A stretch of DNA of 27,016 bases from a bacterium (GTDB taxonomy: Bacteria > BMS3Abin14): positions 1,806,165 to 1,833,180 of the forward strand of contig CP070698.1 in NCBI GenBank assembly GCA_020349685.1, read 5' to 3'. Numbering within the stretch: the first letter of the stretch is position 1; each line of letters starts with the position of its first letter. Position numbers and translations under genes: made by a program. A model generated the notes under the pieces. It worked only from the letters and a program-made list of their open reading frames with translations. It searched no databases and was not told the origin of the DNA. Shown here in pieces: positions 510-27,016 of the stretch.

Positions 510-586
510 AGGCCAGTAGCTCTAACGGTTAGAGCACCGGTCTCCAAAACCGGGTGATGGGGGTTCGAATCCCTCCTGGCCTGCCA
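510..586 (+). tRNA. tRNA-Trp (CCA)
   Basis: Cloverleaf: acceptor AGGCCAG/CTGGCCT, D stem GCTC/GAGC, anticodon stem CCGGT/ACCGG with loop CTCCAAA (CCA at 544-546), T loop TTCGAAT, discriminator G, encoded CCA end. Confidence 0.98.
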
Positions 587-16348: not shown

Positions 16349-17547
<1,199 letters not shown>

Positions 17548-17548
<1 letters not shown>

Positions 17549-17571
17549 CACGATCCGCCCCCGGATCGTGC
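17548..17571 (+). other. Hairpin in tuf-rpsJ spacer (no U-tract)
   Basis: GCACGATCCG-CCCC-CGGATCGTGC, perfect 10-bp stem. Confidence 0.6.
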
Positions 17572-17601
17572 ATTGAAAAGAGCAAGCAGAGGAGCGGCAA
17601 G

Positions 17602-17916
17602 GTGATGGATCAGCAGAAAATACGGATTAAGCTCAAGGCGTACGACTACAGGGTCCTGGATACCTCGGTCACCGAGATCGTCGAGACCGCCAGGCGCACA
17701 GGGGCCAGGGTCTGCGGTCCCATCCCGCTGCCGACGAGGCGGAGTATCTACACGGTCCTCAAGGGACCGCATATCGACAAGAAATCCAGGGAGCAGTTCG
17801 AGATCCGCATCCACAAGCGCATGCTGGACATCGTCGAACCCACTCCCCAGACGGTGGATGCCCTCATGAAACTGGATCTTTCCGCAGGCGTAGACGTGGA
17901 GATCAAGCTCTCATAA
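17602..17916 (+). CDS. rpsJ: 30S ribosomal protein S10 (uS10/NusE)
   Basis: [37 protein letters not shown]. Start is GTG17602 or ATG17605. Confidence 0.99.
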
Positions 17917-17928
17917 GGGGAAAAGGAC

Positions 17929-18549
17929 ATGTCTCAGATGGAAGTTCTCAACATAAAGAATGAAGTCGTGGGCAAGGTGAACCTGGCTCCCTGGTGGAGT
18001 GAAAGGCCCAATACCCCCCTCATTCATCAGGCGGTCGTCACGGCCAGGGCCGGCGCCAGAAGGGGGACCCACTCCACGAAGGGCCGGACCGATGTCAGCG
18101 GCGGCGGAGCCAAACCCTTCCGGCAGAAGGGCACGGGCCGTGCGCGCCAGGGGACGATCCGCGCCCCGCAGATGCGCGGCGACGGGATCGTTTTCGGGCC
18201 CCAGCCGAGGGACTACTCCAAATCCCTCAACAAGAAGATGTCCCGGAAGGCCCTGCAGAGCGCTCTGGCCTACAAAGCGGCCTCCGAGAGCCTCCTTGTC
18301 GTCGACGATATCACCCTTGAGGCCCCCAAGACCAGGGAACTGGTTGCCGTCATGGACCGTTTCGACATCATTAGTGCTGTCATCGTCGTCAAGGACATAT
18401 CGGAAGAGATTGAGAGGGCTTCTGGGAACCTGACCTGGGTCAAAGTGGTCACTCCGGAGAGGGTCAACACCTACGACGTGCTCGCCTTTGACACACTCAT
18501 CGTCACTTCGGACGCCCTCGAGGTGCTGGAAGGAGCGTTGTCCCAATGA
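17929..18549 (+). CDS. rplD: 50S ribosomal protein L4 (uL4)
   Basis: [32 protein letters not shown] and FGPQPRDY motifs. Starts 12 nt after the rpsJ stop. Confidence 0.98.
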
Positions 18550-18836
18550 GACCCTACAGCAAAGTGATCATCAGGCCCCTCCTGACCGAGAAGAACGCCA
18601 CCTTGAAGGAAGTCCACAACAGGGTTGCTTTTGAAGTTGCCCCGGACGCCAACAAGATAGAGATCAAAAAGGCAGTGGAAGAGGCCTTTCAGGTTTCGGT
18701 CCAGTCGGTCAACGTGCTCAACGTGCGCGGCAAGGTCAAGAGGCTCGGGCGGAATATGGGCCGCCGACGTAACTGGAAAAAAGCCATCGTCACCCTCAGG
18801 GAGGGGAGCACGATAGAGTTCTTCGAGGGAGTATAA
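18546..18836 (+). CDS. rplW: 50S ribosomal protein L23 (uL23)
   Basis: [29 protein letters not shown] overlap with rplD. Confidence 0.98.
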
Positions 18837-18904
18837 AAGCCTGTCGTTGAGAACCCGTCAGACTTTTATCCTGAATTTCAGGAACCAAAGCAGGAGCGTA
18901 TAGA

Positions 18905-19729
18905 ATGGCAATCAGGAACTTAAAACCGACATCGCCCGGAAGGCGCTTCATGACCGTCAACGACTTCGCGGAGGTCACGACGGACAAGCCCGAGAAAAGC
19001 CTTCTCATGCCTCTCAAGAGGAAAGGCGGGAGGAACAACGCCGGTCGCATCACGGCATGGCAGCGCGGAGGAGGCCACAAGAGGCGTTACCGGATCATCG
19101 ACTTCAAGAGGAATAAGCCCGATATCCCCGCCCGGGTCAAAAGCATCGAGTACGATCCTAACCGCAGCGCCTATATCGCCCTCCTGGCCTACGTGGATGG
19201 TGAGAAAAGATACATCCTCGCACCCCAGAACCTCAATGTCGGGGACGAGGTTGTCAGCGGTGAAAAGACCGACATAAGACCCGGAAACGCCATGAGGCTT
19301 CGCAACGTCCCCCTTGGAACCCTCGTCCACAACGTGGAGCTCAAGGCCGGCAAGGGCGGACAGATGGTTCGCAGCGCGGGAAACTATGCCCAGCTCATGG
19401 CGAAAGAGGGCGATCACGCGACCCTCAGGCTTCCGTCCGGCGAGATCAGGATGGTGCGCCTGGAGTGCATGGCCACCGTGGGCCAGCTGAGCAACCCGCA
19501 GCACGAAATTATCTCTATCGGTAAGGCCGGGCGGTCGAGATGGCTCGGCAAAAGGCCCAACGTCAGGGGCGTCGCCATGAACCCGGTCGACCACCCCATG
19601 GGGGGCGGAGAAGGCAAGAGCTCCGGAGGACGTCATCCCTGCACGCCGTGGGGGAAACCCACCAAGGGTTTCAAGACGAGGAAGAGAAACAAGAATTCCG
19701 ATCGCTACATCGTCAAGAAGCGATCCTAG
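18905..19729 (+). CDS. rplB: 50S ribosomal protein L2 (uL2)
   Basis: [40 protein letters not shown] motifs. Confidence 0.99.
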
Positions 19730-19744
19730 AACGGGAGGGTAGCG

Positions 19745-20026
19745 TTGGCCAGGTCCATTAAAAAAGGTCCCTTCGTGGATGACCACCTTTTGAGCAAGGT
19801 GAGGTCCATGCAGGAGAAGGGTGACAAGAAGGTCATCAAAACATGGTCCAGAAGGTCCATGATCATCCCCGAGATGGTGGGTTACACCTTCGCTGTCCAC
19901 AACGGGAAGAACTTTATCCCTGTTTTCGTGACCGAAAATATGGTCGGTCAGAGGCTCGGTGAGTTTTCACCTACGAGGACGTACAAGGGGCACACATCCA
20001 AGGCCGACAGAAGAGGCAAGAAGTAG
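19745..20026 (+). CDS. rpsS: 30S ribosomal protein S19 (uS19)
   Basis: [29 protein letters not shown] start after GGGAGG. Confidence 0.98.
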
Positions 20027-20062
20027 TTTTGCCCTGAAAAACCTGAATATTGAGGAATAGTC

Positions 20063-20395
20063 ATGGAATCGACAGCAAAAGCAAGGCATGTCCGGATAGC
20101 GCCGCGGAAGGTGAGGCTTGTCATGGACATGGTCCGGGGCAAGCCGGTGGAGGAGGCGCTTCAGACTCTCGGTCTGGACAGGAAAGCCGCGTCCCCCATC
20201 ATCGCCAAGGTGATCAGGTCCGCCATGGCAAATGCTGAGAACAATCACGACATGAGCACGGACGGCCTCGTCATCACCAGGGCTTTTGTGGATGAGGGGC
20301 CGACTTTGAAAAGGTTCATGCCACGAGCCATGGGTCGTGCCACCATGATCCGAAAGAGGACGAGTCACATTACCGTTGTCCTCTCTGAGAAGTAA
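20063..20395 (+). CDS. rplV: 50S ribosomal protein L22 (uL22)
   Basis: [41 protein letters not shown]. Confidence 0.98.
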
Positions 20396-20406
20396 GGAGG
20401 CAAGTT

Positions 20407-21063
20407 TTGGGCCAGAAAGTTCACCCGAAGGGTTTCCGCCTGGGCGTGATCAAGGACTGGGATTCGCGCTGGTACGCGGAAAAGGACTACGCCAAGCTGC
20501 TGCACGAAGATATCCGCATTCGCGGTTATATCAAGGAGCGGCTCTTTAACGCCGGTGTGTCGAACATCATCATCGAGAGAACAGCCAAACGGGCAAGGAT
20601 CAATATCCACGCCGCCAGGCCCGGGATCATCATCGGAAAGAAAGGTGCCGAGGTCGAGGGGCTGCGCCGCGAGATCCAGAAGATGACCGAAAAGGACATC
20701 TTCATCAACATCGTCGAGGTGCGCAAGCCGGAGGTTGAGGCGCAGCTCGTCGCCGAAAATATCGCCGGCCAGCTCGAAAGGCGTGTTGCTTTCCGGCGCG
20801 CCCTCAAGAGAAGCGTCTCTTCGGCCCTCCGCTTCGGTGCTGAAGGTATCAAGGTCATGGTCGCGGGACGTCTCAACGGTGCGGAAATGTCGCGCCGCGA
20901 GTGGTACCGGGAGGGCCGCGTTCCTCTCCAGACCCTTCGTGCGGATATCGATTACGGTTTCGCGGAGGCCAGGACCACCTACGGGATCATTGGTGTGAAG
21001 GTATGGGTCTTCAAGGGGGAGATCACAGGAAACGAGTCGGCCGGAGACGAGCTCAAGGCCTGA
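20407..21063 (+). CDS. rpsC: 30S ribosomal protein S3 (uS3)
   Basis: [40 protein letters not shown] start. Confidence 0.99.
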
Positions 21064-21115
21064 TCAAACGATGTAACACGGGGCCCTCACCAGGTTCCCG
21101 TCGGGAGACTGCGTC

Positions 21116-21529
21116 ATGTTAATGCCCAAGAAGGTCAAGTTCAGAAAACAGATGCGCGGACGCATGAAAGGTGCCGCCACGCGCGGCAATAAACTCAATT
21201 TCGGCGATTTCGGCCTCCAGGCCCAGACACCCGGATGGATCACCTCACGCCAGATCGAGTCCGCACGTATCGCTATAACGAGGCACGTCAAAAGGGGGGG
21301 GAAGGTATGGATCCGGATCTTTCCCGACAAGCCGGTCACCAAGAAACCCGCTGAGACCAGAATGGGTAAGGGTAAGGGTTCCCCTGAGGCCTGGGTAGCT
21401 GTTGTCAAACCCGGCCGCATCCTCTACGAGCTGGAGGGCGTGCCGGAGTCCGTTGCCAAGGAGGCCATGAGGCTCGCCTCACACAAGCTTCCCATCAAAA
21501 CCAAGATCCTGATCAGGGAGGAACTGTGA
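21116..21529 (+). CDS. rplP: 50S ribosomal protein L16 (uL16)
   Basis: [27 protein letters not shown]. Confidence 0.99.
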
Positions 21530-21735
21530 TGAAGGCAAGTGAACTCAGGGATCTGACGCTGGACGAGCTGCGCCAAAAAGAAAGCGACCTGAGCGCGGAG
21601 CTCTTCAACCTGCGTTTTCAAATAGCTACCAACCAGCTGGAGAACCCCATGAGACTTCCGCTGGCAAAGAAAAATCTTGCGCGGGTCAAGACAGTGATCG
21701 CTCAGAAGGAGCGGTCCGCCGAGAGGACTGAGTGA
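21529..21735 (+). CDS. rpmC: 50S ribosomal protein L29 (uL29)
   Basis: [25 protein letters not shown]. Start is ATG21529 (TGATG overlap) or GTG21526. Confidence 0.97.
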
Positions 21736-22004
21736 TGTCGGACAACCAGAGCAGCCAAAGGAAAATAATCAGCGGTACTGTGGTGAGCAACCGCATGGAC
21801 AAGACAGCTGTTGTCCAGGTCCAGCGCCGTTTCGCGCATCCGGTATTCAAAAAGTATGTGAGCAAGCGGGTCAAATACAAGGTCCACGACGAAAAGAACG
21901 ATCTGAACGTGGGCGACACCGTGAGGATCATCGAGACGCGGCCGCTGTCCAAGGAAAAGAGATGGCGTCTTCTGGATATCCTCGAGCGGGGTCCGCAGGA
22001 CTGA
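21735..22004 (+). CDS. rpsQ: 30S ribosomal protein S17 (uS17)
   Basis: [34 protein letters not shown]. Start is ATG21735 or GTG21732. Confidence 0.98.
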
Positions 22005-22032
22005 AACCCGCATCGTTGAGAGGGACTGAGAA

Positions 22033-22401
22033 ATGATCAAGGTTGAAACCATGCTCGACGTTGCCGATAACAGCGGCGCCAAGAAGGTCCTCTGTTTCAG
22101 GATCCTGGGCGGCTCGAGGCGCAAATCGGCCAGCGTCGGCGACATCATAGTCGTCTCCATCAAGGAGGCCGCGCCTGAATCGAAGGTGAAAAAGGGGGAT
22201 GTCCACAGGGCGGTCATCGTCCGGACCAAGAAAGAGGTCCGCAGACCTGACGGATCCTACATCCGTTTCGACAACAACGCCGCGGTCATCATCAACGAGG
22301 CGCGGGAGCCCATAGGTACGCGTATCTTCGGCCCCATTGCCCGGGAGCTGAGGGGGAAAAACTTCATGAAGATCGTCTCCCTCGCACCTGAGGTCCTTTA
22401 G
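22033..22401 (+). CDS. rplN: 50S ribosomal protein L14 (uL14)
   Basis: [37 protein letters not shown]. Confidence 0.99.
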
Positions 22402-22410
22402 GAGGGCGCC

Positions 22411-22731
22411 ATGGCTAACATCGCTATCAAGAGAAATGATGTCGTTGTCGTAACGGCAGGGAAAGAAAAAGGGAAAAGAGGCAAGGTTCTCCGTGTCCTG
22501 AGGGACAAGGACAGGGTGATCGTTGAGAAGGTGAATTTCATCAAACGCCATCAGAAACCAACCAGTGCCCAGAAACAGGGTGGCATCATCGAGAGGGAAG
22601 GACCGGTTCATCTTTCCAATGTCATGCTGTTCTGCCAGAAATGCGGAAAAGGCGTCCGGACCCGCAGACAGCGGCTGGATGACGGAAATGTCGTCCGCCT
22701 CTGCGCCGGCTGCGGTGAGTCCTTTGACTGA
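22411..22731 (+). CDS. rplX: 50S ribosomal protein L24 (uL24)
   Basis: KOW motif [33 protein letters not shown]-terminal CxxC...CxxC. Confidence 0.98.
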
Positions 22732-22745
22732 TCGGGAGTGTTCGG

Positions 22746-23285
22746 ATGAGTGACATTTTAAAAAGGTACAGAGAAGAGATCGTGCCTGCCATGATGAAGA
22801 CCTTCAACTACGGTAACGTCATGGAAGTGCCGAAACTGGAAAAGATAGTGGTCAATATGGGACTGGGTGAGGCTCTTGAAAACGCCAGGATCCTGGATAC
22901 CTCCATGGAGGAACTCTCCCGCATTACGGGGCAGAGGCCGGTCCTGACCAGGGCCAGGAAGTCCATCGCCAACTTCAAGCTCCGCGAGGGCAACCCCATC
23001 GGATGCCGCGTGACCCTGAGAAGAAAGAGGATGTACGATTTCATCTACAGGCTTCTCAACATCGCCCTGCCGAGAGTACGGGATTTCAAAGGCGTGTCTA
23101 CGAGGGGCTTCGATGGGCGTGGCAACTACACCCTCGGTATCCGGGAACAGCTCATATTCCCCGAGGTCAATTACGATGATGTCGAGAAGATCAAGGGCAT
23201 GAACATCACCATTGTGACGAGTGCCAAGACCGACGAGGAAGCCAGGGAGCTCCTGGATCTAATCGGTCTGCCGTTCAGAAAGTAG
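22746..23285 (+). CDS. rplE: 50S ribosomal protein L5 (uL5)
   Basis: [39 protein letters not shown]. Confidence 0.99.
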
Positions 23286-23298
23286 GACTGGAGGAGAG

Positions 23299-23484
23299 AT
23301 GGCTAAGAAAGCCCTAGTTAACAAGGCCAGACGAAAACCCAAATACGCTGTCCGCGCCTACAACAGATGTCCCATCTGTGGCCGGTCCCGTGCGTACCTG
23401 AGACGCTTTGCCATGTGCAGGATCTGTTTCAGGACCCGGGCCCTCGCCGGAGAGATCCCGGGCGTCGTCAAGGCCAGCTGGTAG
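23299..23484 (+). CDS. rpsN: 30S ribosomal protein S14 type Z (61 aa, Zn-binding)
   Basis: YNRCPICGR...MCRICFR...[11 protein letters not shown]. Confidence 0.98.
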
Positions 23485-23497
23485 GAGGATTGTTGAT

Positions 23498-23896
23498 ATG
23501 TCCATGACAGATCCCATTGCTGACATGCTTACGAGGATCCGTAACGCCCTCATGGCCGGCAAGGAGAAGGTTGATGTTCCCGCTTCCTCGCTCAAGGAAG
23601 GTATCGCCAGGATTCTGAGAGATGAAGGTTACATCATCAACTACAGGATGATCGAGGATACCAAGCAGGGTGTCATCCGGATAACCCTCAAGTACGGAGA
23701 CCCGGACACACCGGCCATCGAGAACCTGCAGAGGGTAAGCAAACCGGGACGACGTGTTTATGTCGGTGCCAGAGAGGTGCCGAGAGTCCTCAACGGACTC
23801 GGCATAGCCATCCTGTCCACCTCCAAGGGGATCCTGACCGACAGGGAGTCGAAGATCCAGAACGTCGGTGGAGAGGTGCTCTGTTACATCTGGTGA
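23498..23896 (+). CDS. rpsH: 30S ribosomal protein S8 (uS8)
   Basis: [38 protein letters not shown]. Start reset to ATG23498 after AGGAGG. Confidence 0.99.
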
Positions 23897-23957
23897 GAAG
23901 CGTGCGTTCGCTGCCTGCCTGCGGGCGGTACAGAAAGAGAAATCTGGAGAAACAGCC

Positions 23958-24494
23958 ATGTCGAGAATAGGAAAACAGCCGGTTCACCTGCCCAAAGGGG
24001 TTGAGGTCAAACTTGACGGCCGCAGGGCCACGGTAAAGGGCCCCAAAGGTCTTCTAAGCCGTGACCTCCCGCAGGGGGTCAAGATCGAGGTCGGCAGTGA
24101 CAGCCTGCAGGTCCTGCCACCGGCCAGGCCGAAGGAAAAGACCTCCTTCCAGGGCCTGACGCGCACCCTTTTGAACAACATGGTTGTGGGTGTGTCGGAG
24201 GGATACAAGAAGGAACTGGACATGGTCGGCGTTGGATACAGGGCCATGTCCAAGGGCAAAGCTCTCGAGATCCACGTGGGCTTTTCCCACCCGGTGGAGT
24301 TCGCCCTTCCCGAGGGCATTTCCGCCGAGGTGGACAAATCCAACCGAATAACCATCAGCGGTATCGACAAGGAAAAGGTCGGCCAGACAGCGGCTGATAT
24401 CCGTGCCATCAGACCCCCGGAACCCTACAAGGGCAAGGGGATCATGTACACAGGGGAAAAGATCAGGCGCAAGGCCGGTAAAACAGGCGTTTAG
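23958..24494 (+). CDS. rplF: 50S ribosomal protein L6 (uL6)
   Basis: MSRIGKQP, GVGYRA, RPPEPYKGKG. Start reset to ATG23958. Confidence 0.99.
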   Translation: MSRIGKQPVHLPKGVEVKLDGRRATVKGPKGLLSRDLPQGVKIEVGSDSLQVLPPARPKEKTSFQGLTRTLLNNMVVGVSEGYKKELDMVGVGYRAMSKGKALEIHVGFSHPVEFALPEGISAEVDKSNRITISGIDKEKVGQTAADIRAIRPPEPYKGKGIMYTGEKIRRKAGKTGV

Positions 24495-24518
24495 AAGCTG
24501 TTTTGGAGGATCACTCAA

Positions 24519-24887
24519 GTGGGCAGGATCGAGGATAAAAAAAGAACCCGCGTACAAAGGCGGAAGCGCATCAGGGATAAGGTCTACGGGACTGCCGAAA
24601 GGCCGAGACTCTCGGTCTTCAGGAGCACCCGCCACATATACGCCCAGATCATCGACGATGACATGGGGTCCGTCCTCGCGAGCGCATCGACCATGGATGC
24701 GCAGCTGCGCGGATCGAAGAAGTACGGCGGAAATGTTGATGCGGCTCGCGAGGTTGGAAAGCTCCTGGCCGAGCGCGCGGCGACGAAGAAAATAGAGGTG
24801 GTTTCCTTTGACCGCGGTGGTTTCAAGTATCACGGTCGCGTCAAAGCGCTTGCGGAAGCCGCCAGGGACGGGGGCCTGAAGTTCTAG
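24519..24887 (+). CDS. rplR: 50S ribosomal protein L18 (uL18)
   Basis: [36 protein letters not shown] start. Confidence 0.99.
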
Positions 24888-24932
24888 AACGGCAGGATCC
24901 CAGACACGAGACAGGACGATAGGTGCATAAGT

Positions 24933-25460
24933 ATGAAGAGAGCCTTGAAGCAACCTCTTAGGGACGTGACCATCGATGAGACGGAACTCATCGACAAGGT
25001 CGTATTTATCAACCGTGTAGCCAAGGTCGTCAAGGGTGGGCGGAGATTCCGGTTCAGTGCCCTTGTGGTTGTTGGTGACGGCAAGGGCCTGGTTGGCGTC
25101 GGTTACGGGAAGGCCAACGAGGTACCCGAAGCTATCCGCAAGGGGATCGAGAACGCCAAGAAAAGCCTTTACAGGATCCCCCTGAAAGGCGCGACTCTCC
25201 ATCACCAGGTCATCGGTCGGTGGGGAGCTGCCAAAGTCCTCCTCAAGCCCGCGAGTCCGGGTACCGGCGTTATCGCCGGTGGACCCGTTAGGGCGATGAT
25301 GGAGGCCCTCGGCGTCAAGGACATCCTCACCAAGTGCCTCGGGACCAACAACCCCAACAACGTCCTTAAAGCCGCCCTGCAGGGCCTCCTTGCCATCAGG
25401 AGCCCCGAGGACATAGCCAACGTCCGCGGCAAGAAGGTCAGCGAAATCCTGCACGGCTAG
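24933..25460 (+). CDS. rpsE: 30S ribosomal protein S5 (uS5)
   Basis: [24 protein letters not shown] and [12 protein letters not shown]. Exact start uncertain. Confidence 0.98.
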
Positions 25461-25680
25461 GAGTATGTCTAAGAACACTACACATACTCCTAGATAGAAT
25501 TTGTCGGCCCATGGAACTACAGGTTTATGAAATATAAAGCGAAATTAAATGGTTATATCGGAACCGATCCAGATTCTTTCAAAGGGTGGGTCCCGGAAAG
25601 CTGGACCAAGGCCTTTAGAAGGCAAGCAGCCGACAAATCAGCTAGCAGCGTGATGAAGTTCCACGGCACGCTGCTAGATA
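25457..25680. repeat. Inverted-repeat-rich insert between rpsE and rpmD (possible MITE remnants or structured RNA)
   Basis: Perfect IRs: CTAGGAGTATGT 25457-25468 / 25482-25493; ATTTGTCGGC 25499-25508 / 25629-25638; CTAGCAGCGTG 25642-25652 / 25667-25677. CTAGATAG occurs twice. Confidence 0.7.
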
Positions 25681-25693
25681 GGGAGACAACGTG

Positions 25694-25882
25694 ATGTCCA
25701 AGATCGATGTGACACTGGTGAAAAGCACCATAGGCAGGCCAGGAAAGCACCACAAGGTCGTGCGCAGCCTGGGATTGAGAAAACTCAATCAGACGGTCCG
25801 GCATGAGGATAATCCCTGCATAAGAGGGATGGTCGAGAAGGTATCCCATCTCGTCAGGGTTGAGACCGTGGAGGAAGAGTAG
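25694..25882 (+). CDS. rpmD: 50S ribosomal protein L30 (uL30)
   Basis: [33 protein letters not shown]. Start is ATG25694 or GTG25691. Confidence 0.98.
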
Positions 25883-26317
25883 ATGCTAGACAGACTGAAG
25901 CCTGCAAAGGGTGCGGTCCAGAGCCGCAAGCGTGTCGGTCGCGGTCCGGGCAGCGGCCTGGGCAAGACCAGCGGCCGGGGCCACAACGGGCAGTTATCGC
26001 GGTCCGGCGGAAAGGTGAAGGCCGGATTCGAGGGTGGACAGATGCCTCTTCAAAGGCGCCTTCCCAAGCGCGGTTTTACCAACACCTTCCGCACTGAATA
26101 CACGGTGGTCAACCTTCGGGACCTGGCCCGGGTCGAGGATGTGGATGTCATCGATCCCGATCTGATGGTCAAGCTCAGGCTTGCCCGCAAGGGGATGCCG
26201 GTCAAGGTTCTGGCACAGGGAGATCTTTCCCGTGCCGTCACCATCAAGGCCCATAAAATAAGCGCATCGGCGGCCGCCAAGATCGAAAAGGCCGGCGGAA
26301 AAGTAGAGCTCATCTGA
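25883..26317 (+). CDS. rplO: 50S ribosomal protein L15 (uL15)
   Basis: [19 protein letters not shown] and [18 protein letters not shown]. Confidence 0.99.
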
Positions 26318-26327
26318 GGGGGAGCCA

Positions 26328-27016
26328 TTGATTTCCAGCCTGATGAACATCTTCAAGATCCCTGAGCTGAAAAGGCGTATCTTTTTCACTCTCGGCCTGC
26401 TGGCCATCTTCAGGGTGGGGGCTCACATCCCCACGCCTGGCATCGACGGCATAGCCCTGGGTGAGTTTTTCAGGCAGGCGGCAGGGACCCTGCTCGGCTT
26501 TTTCGACATGTTCGCGGGCGGTGCCCTGGAGAGGATGGCCATTTTCGCCCTCGGGATCATGCCCTACATCTCGGCCAGCATCATCATCCAGCTTCTGACC
26601 GTCGTTATCCCCCACCTTGAGAGGCTCTCCAAGGAAGGGGAGGCGGGAAGGCGCACGATCATCCGTTACACGCGATACGGGACCGTCGGCCTGGCCGCTT
26701 TCCAGAGCTTCGGGATCTCCATCGGTCTCGAGCAGATGACGAGCCCCGGTGGCGCAGCCATCGTTCCCGTTCCCGGTTGGGGTTTCCGGTTCATGACCGG
26801 TCTCACCATGACCGCCGGAACAGCCTTCATCATGTGGCTCGGCGAGCAGATAACAGAGCGAGGCATCGGGAACGGGATCTCCCTCATCATCTTCGCCGGT
26901 ATCGTAGCCAGGATGCCCACTGCCACAGGACAGACCTTCACTCTCCTGCGCACGGGTGAGATCTCGGCATTCATCATGCTCTTCGTCCTTGTCCTCATGG
27001 TGGCCGCGGTCGCCTT
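26328..27016 (+). CDS. secY: Preprotein translocase subunit SecY, 5' part (runs off window end)
   Basis: Hand translation from TTG26328: MISSLMNIFKIPELKRRIFFTLGLLAIFRVGAHIPTPGID...IFALGIMPYISASIIIQLL...WLGEQITERGIGNGISLIIFAGI. Absent from the ORF track because there is no stop in the window. Confidence 0.98.
   Translation, partial: MISSLMNIFKIPELKRRIFFTLGLLAIFRVGAHIPTPGIDGIALGEFFRQAAGTLLGFFDMFAGGALERMAIFALGIMPYISASIIIQLLTVVIPHLERLSKEGEAGRRTIIRYTRYGTVGLAAFQSFGISIGLEQMTSPGGAAIVPVPGWGFRFMTGLTMTAGTAFIMWLGEQITERGIGNGISLIIFAGIVARMPTATGQTFTLLRTGEISAFIMLFVLVLMVAAVA

Follow-up and report, generated by a model that had tools for sequence, protein, structure and literature searches.

The window analysed here is a stretch of 27,016 nucleotides that makes up one entire contig (G000:C1:1806165-1833180) of a metagenome-assembled genome (MAG), and from nusG through to a partial secY its genes follow the canonical order. 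Pfam matches confirmed 28 ORFs; putative rplJ, rplL, rpoB and rpoC were named from ORF size and position. The gene tuf, encoding EF-Tu (16349..17548, forward strand; Pfam GTP_EFTU at 2.3e-64 plus domains 2 and 3), precedes a full-length rpsJ (uS10; 17602..17916, forward strand) that matches PF00338 at 3.7e-37 over profile positions 1-98 of 98 and NF001861 at 165.3 bits (cut-off 85). The rpsJ stop codon, TAA at 17914-17916, is followed by a spacer of 12 nt (GGGGAAAAGGAC; 17917..17928, forward strand) and then by the ATG (17929) of rplD (uL4; 17929..18549, forward strand), itself full length with 206 codons (PF00573, 4.8e-63; TIGR03953, 224.3 bits, cut-off 130.1). The spacer lies at the canonical site of rplC and holds the Shine-Dalgarno-like AAGGA of rplD. 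Each ORF in the stretch after rplD (18546..27014, forward strand) has a Pfam match, and rplD to rpsQ are contiguous and in canonical order by the same evidence. The cluster departs from the canonical S10 order at one defining feature, the presence of rplC between rpsJ and rplD, and since 12 nt is too short for any rplC remnant, the gene is wholly gone from the junction. A whole-genome scan with PF00297, the uL3 profile, found no uL3 remnant in the window, its sole match lying elsewhere. These searches bear out an earlier note, made from the sequence alone, which had described rplC as missing between two full-length genes (a description that now has Pfam and NCBIfam matches behind it), had seen no uL3-like ORF in the window, and had read the other S10/spc genes as canonical through secY, as their Pfam matches confirm.

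A tRNA gene (window 510-583; Rfam RF00005, 65 bits) precedes nusG where the cluster begins. The spacer between rpsE and rpmD (window 25461-25690) is 230 nt long, AT-richer and strongly structured (MFE -75.6 kcal/mol, z -4.4); it is missing in the same-genus genomes G001 and G002, where both genes abut, and 37-76-nt pieces of it recur at several further sites in G001 and G007. A small, MITE-like repeat has apparently been inserted here into the spc cluster. In RNA run X17, a 151-nt contig spans 17891-18041 with 26 letters on the rpsJ side of the stop codon; given so few letters, and possible DNA carry-over, we make no claim of rpsJ-rplD co-transcription from it.

The genome record, G000:C1, consists of 343 contigs joined by 100-N spacers (2.03 Mb; 81.9% complete), so that a distance measured from one contig to another carries no meaning. 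A six-frame PF00297 scan of the 2.03-Mb bin returned a single uL3 match, on a contig other than that of the window: a 297-codon rplC ORF (G000:C1:1856640-1857533; L001:1219-2112) that begins 349 nt into a 20.6-kb contig. Its product is a full-length bacterial uL3, with residues 5-204 aligned to positions 2-201 of the 202-position model TIGR03625 (286.4 bits, cut-off 142.9) and a PF00297 score of 67.6 bits (cut-off 22). Downstream of rplC lie tatA (PF02416) and then an ArsR-type HTH gene; the rplC-tatA interval is free of a terminator, and a strong 10-bp terminator stands behind tatA. The tetranucleotide composition of this contig is typical of the bin (r 0.986, rank 56 from the lowest among the 57 contigs of at least 8 kb), and the contig shows synteny with rplC loci in other genomes of its genus, to which G000 is 75-76% identical in uL3 (87% over the 208 kept tree columns) versus 80-82% in uL4. 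In the relatives, too, uL3 is encoded at one locus per genome (15/15, counting as one locus the G011 rplC, which is split across two contig ends). The expectation that rplC had been relocated rather than lost is thus confirmed by a single full-length copy on another contig, in a unit of its own with tatA and arsR-type neighbours.

The uL3 core of G000 is normal, and after about residue 210 it continues into an 87-residue tail rich in glutamate, alanine and proline (29 E, 18 A, 10 P; L001:1849-2109, G000:C1:1857270-1857530), with a net charge of -26 as against +16 for the core. Acidic tails of 40-110 residues occur in 9/12 genomes of the phylum, the tails of G003, G006 and G012 measuring some 20 residues, and are absent from all 24 solitary uL3 proteins compared from outside the phylum. 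We found no added domain in the tail, only low-complexity acidic sequence, and the suggestion in the earlier note that the relocated gene might be fused is not supported.

The split between rplC and its former neighbours extends throughout the phylum, as sampled by 16 species of 9 genera in one family. We found rplC in 16/16 of these genomes and rplD in 15/16, and the two genes are non-adjacent in all 14 relatives that have both. They occupy separate contigs in 12; the remaining two are single-record genomes, possibly concatenated, in which the genes lie far apart, and because of N runs in a G003 locus the coordinate distances in G003 and G004 were not taken as physical. By tblastn, the order tuf-rpsJ-rplD-rplW recurs in 11/11 of the relatives' rplD loci (rpsJ or tuf being cut by a contig end in three), so the same junction is present in every relative in which we looked for it. 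The rpsJ-rplD spacer measures 12-15 nt in the 12 genomes compared, G000 included, and contains a GGGG motif in 11 of them and GG in G003. At the other end of the split, the order rplC-tatA-arsR was found by tblastn in 10/11 of the relatives' rplC loci, with G007 as the exception; a MoxR (AAA_3)/DUF58/VWA cluster upstream of rplC is common to G001, G003 and G007, and uvrA takes that place in G009. The uL3 proteins of the phylum are monophyletic (100/99), with the same internal branching as in a tree of S10+L4+L23+L2. This agreement, together with the occurrence of the split throughout the phylum, points to an old, vertically inherited relocation; on these sequence comparisons, the relocation predates the radiation of the phylum and has been vertical since.

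Other features of these loci vary among the relatives. A stand-alone receiver ORF of about 140 residues (PF00072, reverse strand) directly follows rplC in G003, G006 and G007 (L106:9273-9695, L110:8557-8970 and L108:8254-8673) and is absent in G000 and G001. Many of the relatives' rplD contigs (G007:C22, G008:C140, G012:C9, G013:C9, G014:C172 and G011:C90) end 430-650 nt ahead of rplD, within tuf or just past it, a pattern that hints at another, nearly identical copy of tuf which could not be resolved in assembly.

DNA upstream of rplC could be aligned for 13 genomes, rplC being cut by a contig end in the other three. All 13 share a TTGACG box, a 17-nt interval and a TAnnnA box, from which we infer that rplC has its own sigma-70-type promoter; a consensus promoter scan did not list it, because its -10 box ends in A rather than T. 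The start of the transcript was placed by its spacing from this putative promoter. Between promoter and gene lies a leader of 65-105 nt with 24 invariant columns in 13/13 genomes, and this conserved element stands directly before rplC in all 13 as well as, among the matches listed, in 8/8 metagenome matches with downstream DNA. In the RNAalifold consensus of 14 pairs, an outer helix (P1) forms between UUCUCC and the Shine-Dalgarno sequence GGAGGA. Inside it come a CUA/UAG helix and a 4x4 internal loop (AA(A/C)C opposite AAGA), both invariant, followed by a covarying helix (P2) in which AUYCRYY pairs with RRYGGAU, beneath an apical part that varies from 5 to about 70 nt. P1 appears in 5/6 single-sequence minimum-energy folds, the GGAGG of G003 pairing elsewhere. 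The predicted fold covers the ribosome-binding site.

The alignments support this predicted structure. Standard pairs fill 96.1% of the cells at the proposed pairings versus 40-52% when partners are slid by 1-3 columns; 5/14 pairs show double-sided changes (G-C, A-U and G-U at one P2 position, for example); and the covariation score exceeded that of 500/500 shuffles both for the 13 sequences and for an alignment of 22, fitted to the model, to which nine metagenome sequences had been added. Covariation support is strongest for P2, and that for P1 consists mostly of one-sided changes because the Shine-Dalgarno sequence is invariant; single-sequence fold z-scores are modest (-2.2 to +0.1). A covariance model of the leader scored 60-78 bits once per genome, always abutting rplC, in the 13 genomes that were also its training set, and the next best match anywhere in the 16 phylum genomes reached at most 21 bits. 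In 135 genomes of other families, it had no match at E<=0.1. A pattern scan of metagenome contigs covered at least 80 loci (at least 117 stretches); among the matches listed, nine loci scored 52-76 bits, and the eight with downstream DNA run into uL3 genes 70-90% identical to that of G000. These sequences are 89-100% identical to training sequences and do not, for that reason, count as independent lineages. Five weaker matches among those listed (20-29 bits), without uL3 behind them, look like chance products of the pattern. A search of the window and L001 against 4227 Rfam families at gathering score found only the tRNA at window 510-583, the leader remaining unmatched. Judged by sequence-level criteria, the leader qualifies as a candidate ribosomal-protein leader (r-leader) that matches no described family.

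Mimicry of the rRNA site of the protein is common, though not universal, among r-leaders. We looked for it here and found no persuasive case: a motif search of same-genus 23S rRNA with the invariant strands of the leader gave partial matches in domain I with 1-2 mismatches, about as many as chance would produce, and it is the paired positions that are mismatched. The 23S rRNA match in one same-genus genome (L117:954-4743, G001:C126) is 3790 nt long against a model of 2925 positions, and the roughly 865 nt of extra sequence inside the gene might be an intervening sequence or intron.

Taken as a whole, these data are very probably explained by an ancestral relocation of rplC into a unit of its own with a promoter and conserved leader. 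In the common ancestor of the phylum, rplC left the rpsJ-rplD interval cleanly and settled at a distant site, where it is now the first gene of a unit comprising rplC and tatA, with the arsR-type gene beyond the terminator. This unit is preceded by the conserved 5' leader and probably driven by its own sigma-70-type promoter. The S10 cluster continues without rplC, and rplD is translated from the Shine-Dalgarno-like sequence in the 12-nt spacer. Separate regulation of the moved gene, one of the options raised in the earlier note, is probable given this putative promoter and leader.

How the leader would act is a more tentative matter. In the model that we propose, and to which we give slightly less than an even chance, the leader would serve as an operator through which uL3 controls its own synthesis. 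Free uL3 would attach to the invariant internal loop and stabilise the helix that hides the Shine-Dalgarno sequence, access of the 30S subunit would be blocked by the stabilised P1, and uL3 synthesis would be feedback-controlled independently of the S10 cluster. We favour uL3 as the ligand because it is the sole ribosomal protein encoded by the unit, because it is a primary rRNA-binding protein, and because the loop, with invariant unpaired bases between covarying helices, looks like a protein-binding site. The first of these properties corresponds to the 'Only' criterion in Table 1 of Eckert and Weinberg (2020; PMC7247131).

It is quite possible, on the other hand, that the leader is real and has another function, as an mRNA-stabilising structure, as the site of a different protein (e.g. 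uL4, whose binding would coordinate rplC with the S10 cluster), or as a constitutive damper of translation. The failure to find rRNA mimicry is compatible with such functions, as is the control by L4 of the E. coli S10 operon, rplC included, described by Fu et al. (2013; PMC3616713). In addition, the promoter of solitary rplC genes in delta-proteobacterial MAGs lies immediately ahead of the Shine-Dalgarno sequence, leaving no room for a long leader, which indicates that a leader is not obligatory for a solitary rplC. However, invariant unpaired loop nucleotides between covarying helices typify a protein-binding site rather than a stability hairpin, and uL3, as the one ribosomal protein that the unit encodes, fits the 'Only' criterion (PMC7247131). 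Moreover, most of the E. coli ribosomal-protein regulatory RNAs treated by Fu et al. are narrowly distributed to Gammaproteobacteria, and the L4-binding RNA is described there as lost in enterobacterial endosymbionts (PMC3616713).

The uL3 operator model would, if correct, describe a private feedback loop for rplC, acquired after its exit from the S10 transcription unit and acting on an early 50S assembly protein. In the main text of Eckert and Weinberg, 'rplC' appears a single time, in the Table 1 row for archaeal L4, and none of the listed rows of that table names a leader with uL3 as its ligand (PMC7247131). Nor did the literature searched, covering main texts, yield a described uL3-binding leader or an S10 cluster lacking rplC.

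The relocation is not peculiar to this phylum. Among 135 genomes from 135 other families scanned for uL3 and uL4, 133 contained both; the two genes are adjacent on one contig in 118/133 and lie on different contigs in 15. In 14 of those 15 (G033, G044, G050, G053, G055, G063, G069, G081, G086, G097, G112, G115, G125 and G141), rplD starts less than 180 nt after rpsJ and rplC is on another contig (near a contig end in G044); the fifteenth, G110, has an undecidable contig break. Forty operonic control loci were all canonical, with rpsJ seen in 39. Solitary rplC genes, with approximately 2.7-4 kb of flanking DNA devoid of rpsJ and rplD, also account for nine of 79 named uL3 loci of other phyla, in records labelled Myxococcota, Syntrophobacterales, delta proteobacterium (2), Proteobacteria and uncultured Rickettsiales (4); for these named records the comparison covered the rplC loci. 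The search of genome contigs that supplied them gave a single close relative, the G002 record, its other uL3 genes being distant. The split thus recurs in roughly a tenth of the sampled families, and the rarity implied by the earlier note was overstated, the same rpsJ-rplD junction being present in 14/133.

In the four MAGs labelled 'uncultured Rickettsiales', the solitary rplC is preceded by another conserved leader, unlike that of the phylum and some 75 nt long (L039:3921-4006, L060:3921-4006, L074:3921-4006 and L081:2669-2754). Its consensus fold, drawn from four sequences that form two close pairs, has a 5' CUUCC pairing with the Shine-Dalgarno sequence around an inner hairpin, an architecture analogous to that of the rplC leader of the phylum studied here.

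A foreign origin of rplC had been among the options in the earlier note. On that view, rplC would have been acquired horizontally, the operonic copy would have been deleted afterwards, and the solitary genes of different phyla would share one origin. Most solitary genes do fall in one region of the uL3 trees, and when all 26 solitary and phylum uL3 sequences are constrained to form a single clade, the log-likelihood drops by no more than about 10 units (-19687.4 vs -19677.1 for the careful tree). An identical constraint is rejected for S10+L4+L23+L2 (delta lnL 188, p-AU 1.7e-5). A more favourable uL3 result (p-AU 0.84) was discarded, its reference having been a poor quick tree that the careful tree supersedes, standing some 10 log units above the constrained one. 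With the careful tree better by that amount, the one-clade test neither supports nor rejects a single origin, and the non-rejection is in any case weak evidence, as the alignment comprises only 208 columns. Against horizontal displacement, the single clade appeared in 0/200 bootstrap trees, and the uL3 region that contains most of the solitary genes is weakly supported and also holds four operonic genes (G021, G024, G037 and G123). The grouping may instead be species signal, since 12/14 solitary genomes likewise come together in a single part of the neighbour-gene tree, again with weak support; across the S10+L4+L23+L2 tree as a whole, solitary-rplC genomes are interleaved with operonic ones. 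The loci, neighbours and leaders also differ between lineages, tatA and arsR adjoining rplC only in this phylum. Inside the phylum, the monophyly of uL3 and the congruence of its tree with those of the other genes run counter to the xenologous option. We therefore consider a shared foreign origin improbable; the uL3 trees, the neighbour-gene trees and the comparison of loci gave no positive evidence that the phylum's rplC is foreign.

The junction itself was recovered outside this MAG. Three Logan contigs bridge it with one mismatch each and no indels (X1 record 8, 17518-18400; X6 record 32, 17728-18400; X10 record 16, 17791-18400), and they come from three DNA runs of three studies, one of which may be the MAG's own sample, leaving at least two independent assemblies. 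An assembly or binning artefact, in which rplC was dropped from between rpsJ and rplD or its contig came into the bin from another organism, is what one might fear of a fragmented MAG of 343 contigs, 81.9% complete, with rplC beginning just 349 nt from a contig end, but that idea is largely refuted and hardly credible, given the crossing of the junction in three studies, its presence in 11/11 relatives, the typical composition and conserved synteny of the rplC contig, and the single uL3 in the bin. The contention of the earlier note that the tidy junction was no assembly deletion holds on the same grounds.

Binning checks, marker concatenation and operon models widely treat the order of the S10 genes as a fixed landmark. 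A clean junction between rpsJ and rplD is nonetheless inherited throughout an entire candidate phylum, and because it is heritable and present in about a tenth of the other families sampled, an rplC 'missing' from beside rpsJ is no sign of an incomplete genome. The change in gene order is itself recurrent and easily explained; it is the leader and the acidic tail that merit experiment, the former as a testable candidate for a new ribosomal-protein regulatory RNA and the latter as a further lineage-specific feature of the ribosome. A broader reading, which we consider rather doubtful, is that the leader is the first uL3-responsive translational operator, and that the recurrent escape of rplC (in roughly one family in ten), the analogous leader in at least one other lineage and the weak grouping of solitary uL3 proteins would together mark uL3 as the single protein of the S10 cluster whose dosage is repeatedly set independently.

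The rplC leader shares several properties with known r-leaders, namely the E. coli set (PMC3616713) and the 20 candidates of Eckert and Weinberg (PMC7247131). Like these, it occupies the 5' UTR of a gene for a ribosomal protein, has a covarying structure, places the Shine-Dalgarno sequence inside a helix and is restricted to one lineage; unlike them, it matches no Rfam family, and binding by uL3 is a prediction. The other families with a solitary rplC share the same type of rpsJ-rplD junction, but they lack tatA and arsR beside rplC, do not match the leader model and have no acidic uL3 tail.

Compared with a canonical S10 cluster, the cluster in the window retains all genes except rplC in their usual order, fused to the str and spc clusters; it differs in that rplC is transcribed elsewhere and in that no Rfam leader is present in the window. 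It is, in other words, an ordinary S10/spc cluster minus rplC, accompanied by a relocated, self-contained rplC unit. In cyanobacteria and chlamydiae, it is rpsJ and not rplC that is detached from the S10 cluster. Both there and in the phylum described here the cluster is broken at its 5' end, but here rpsJ stays attached and an internal gene, rplC, has left.
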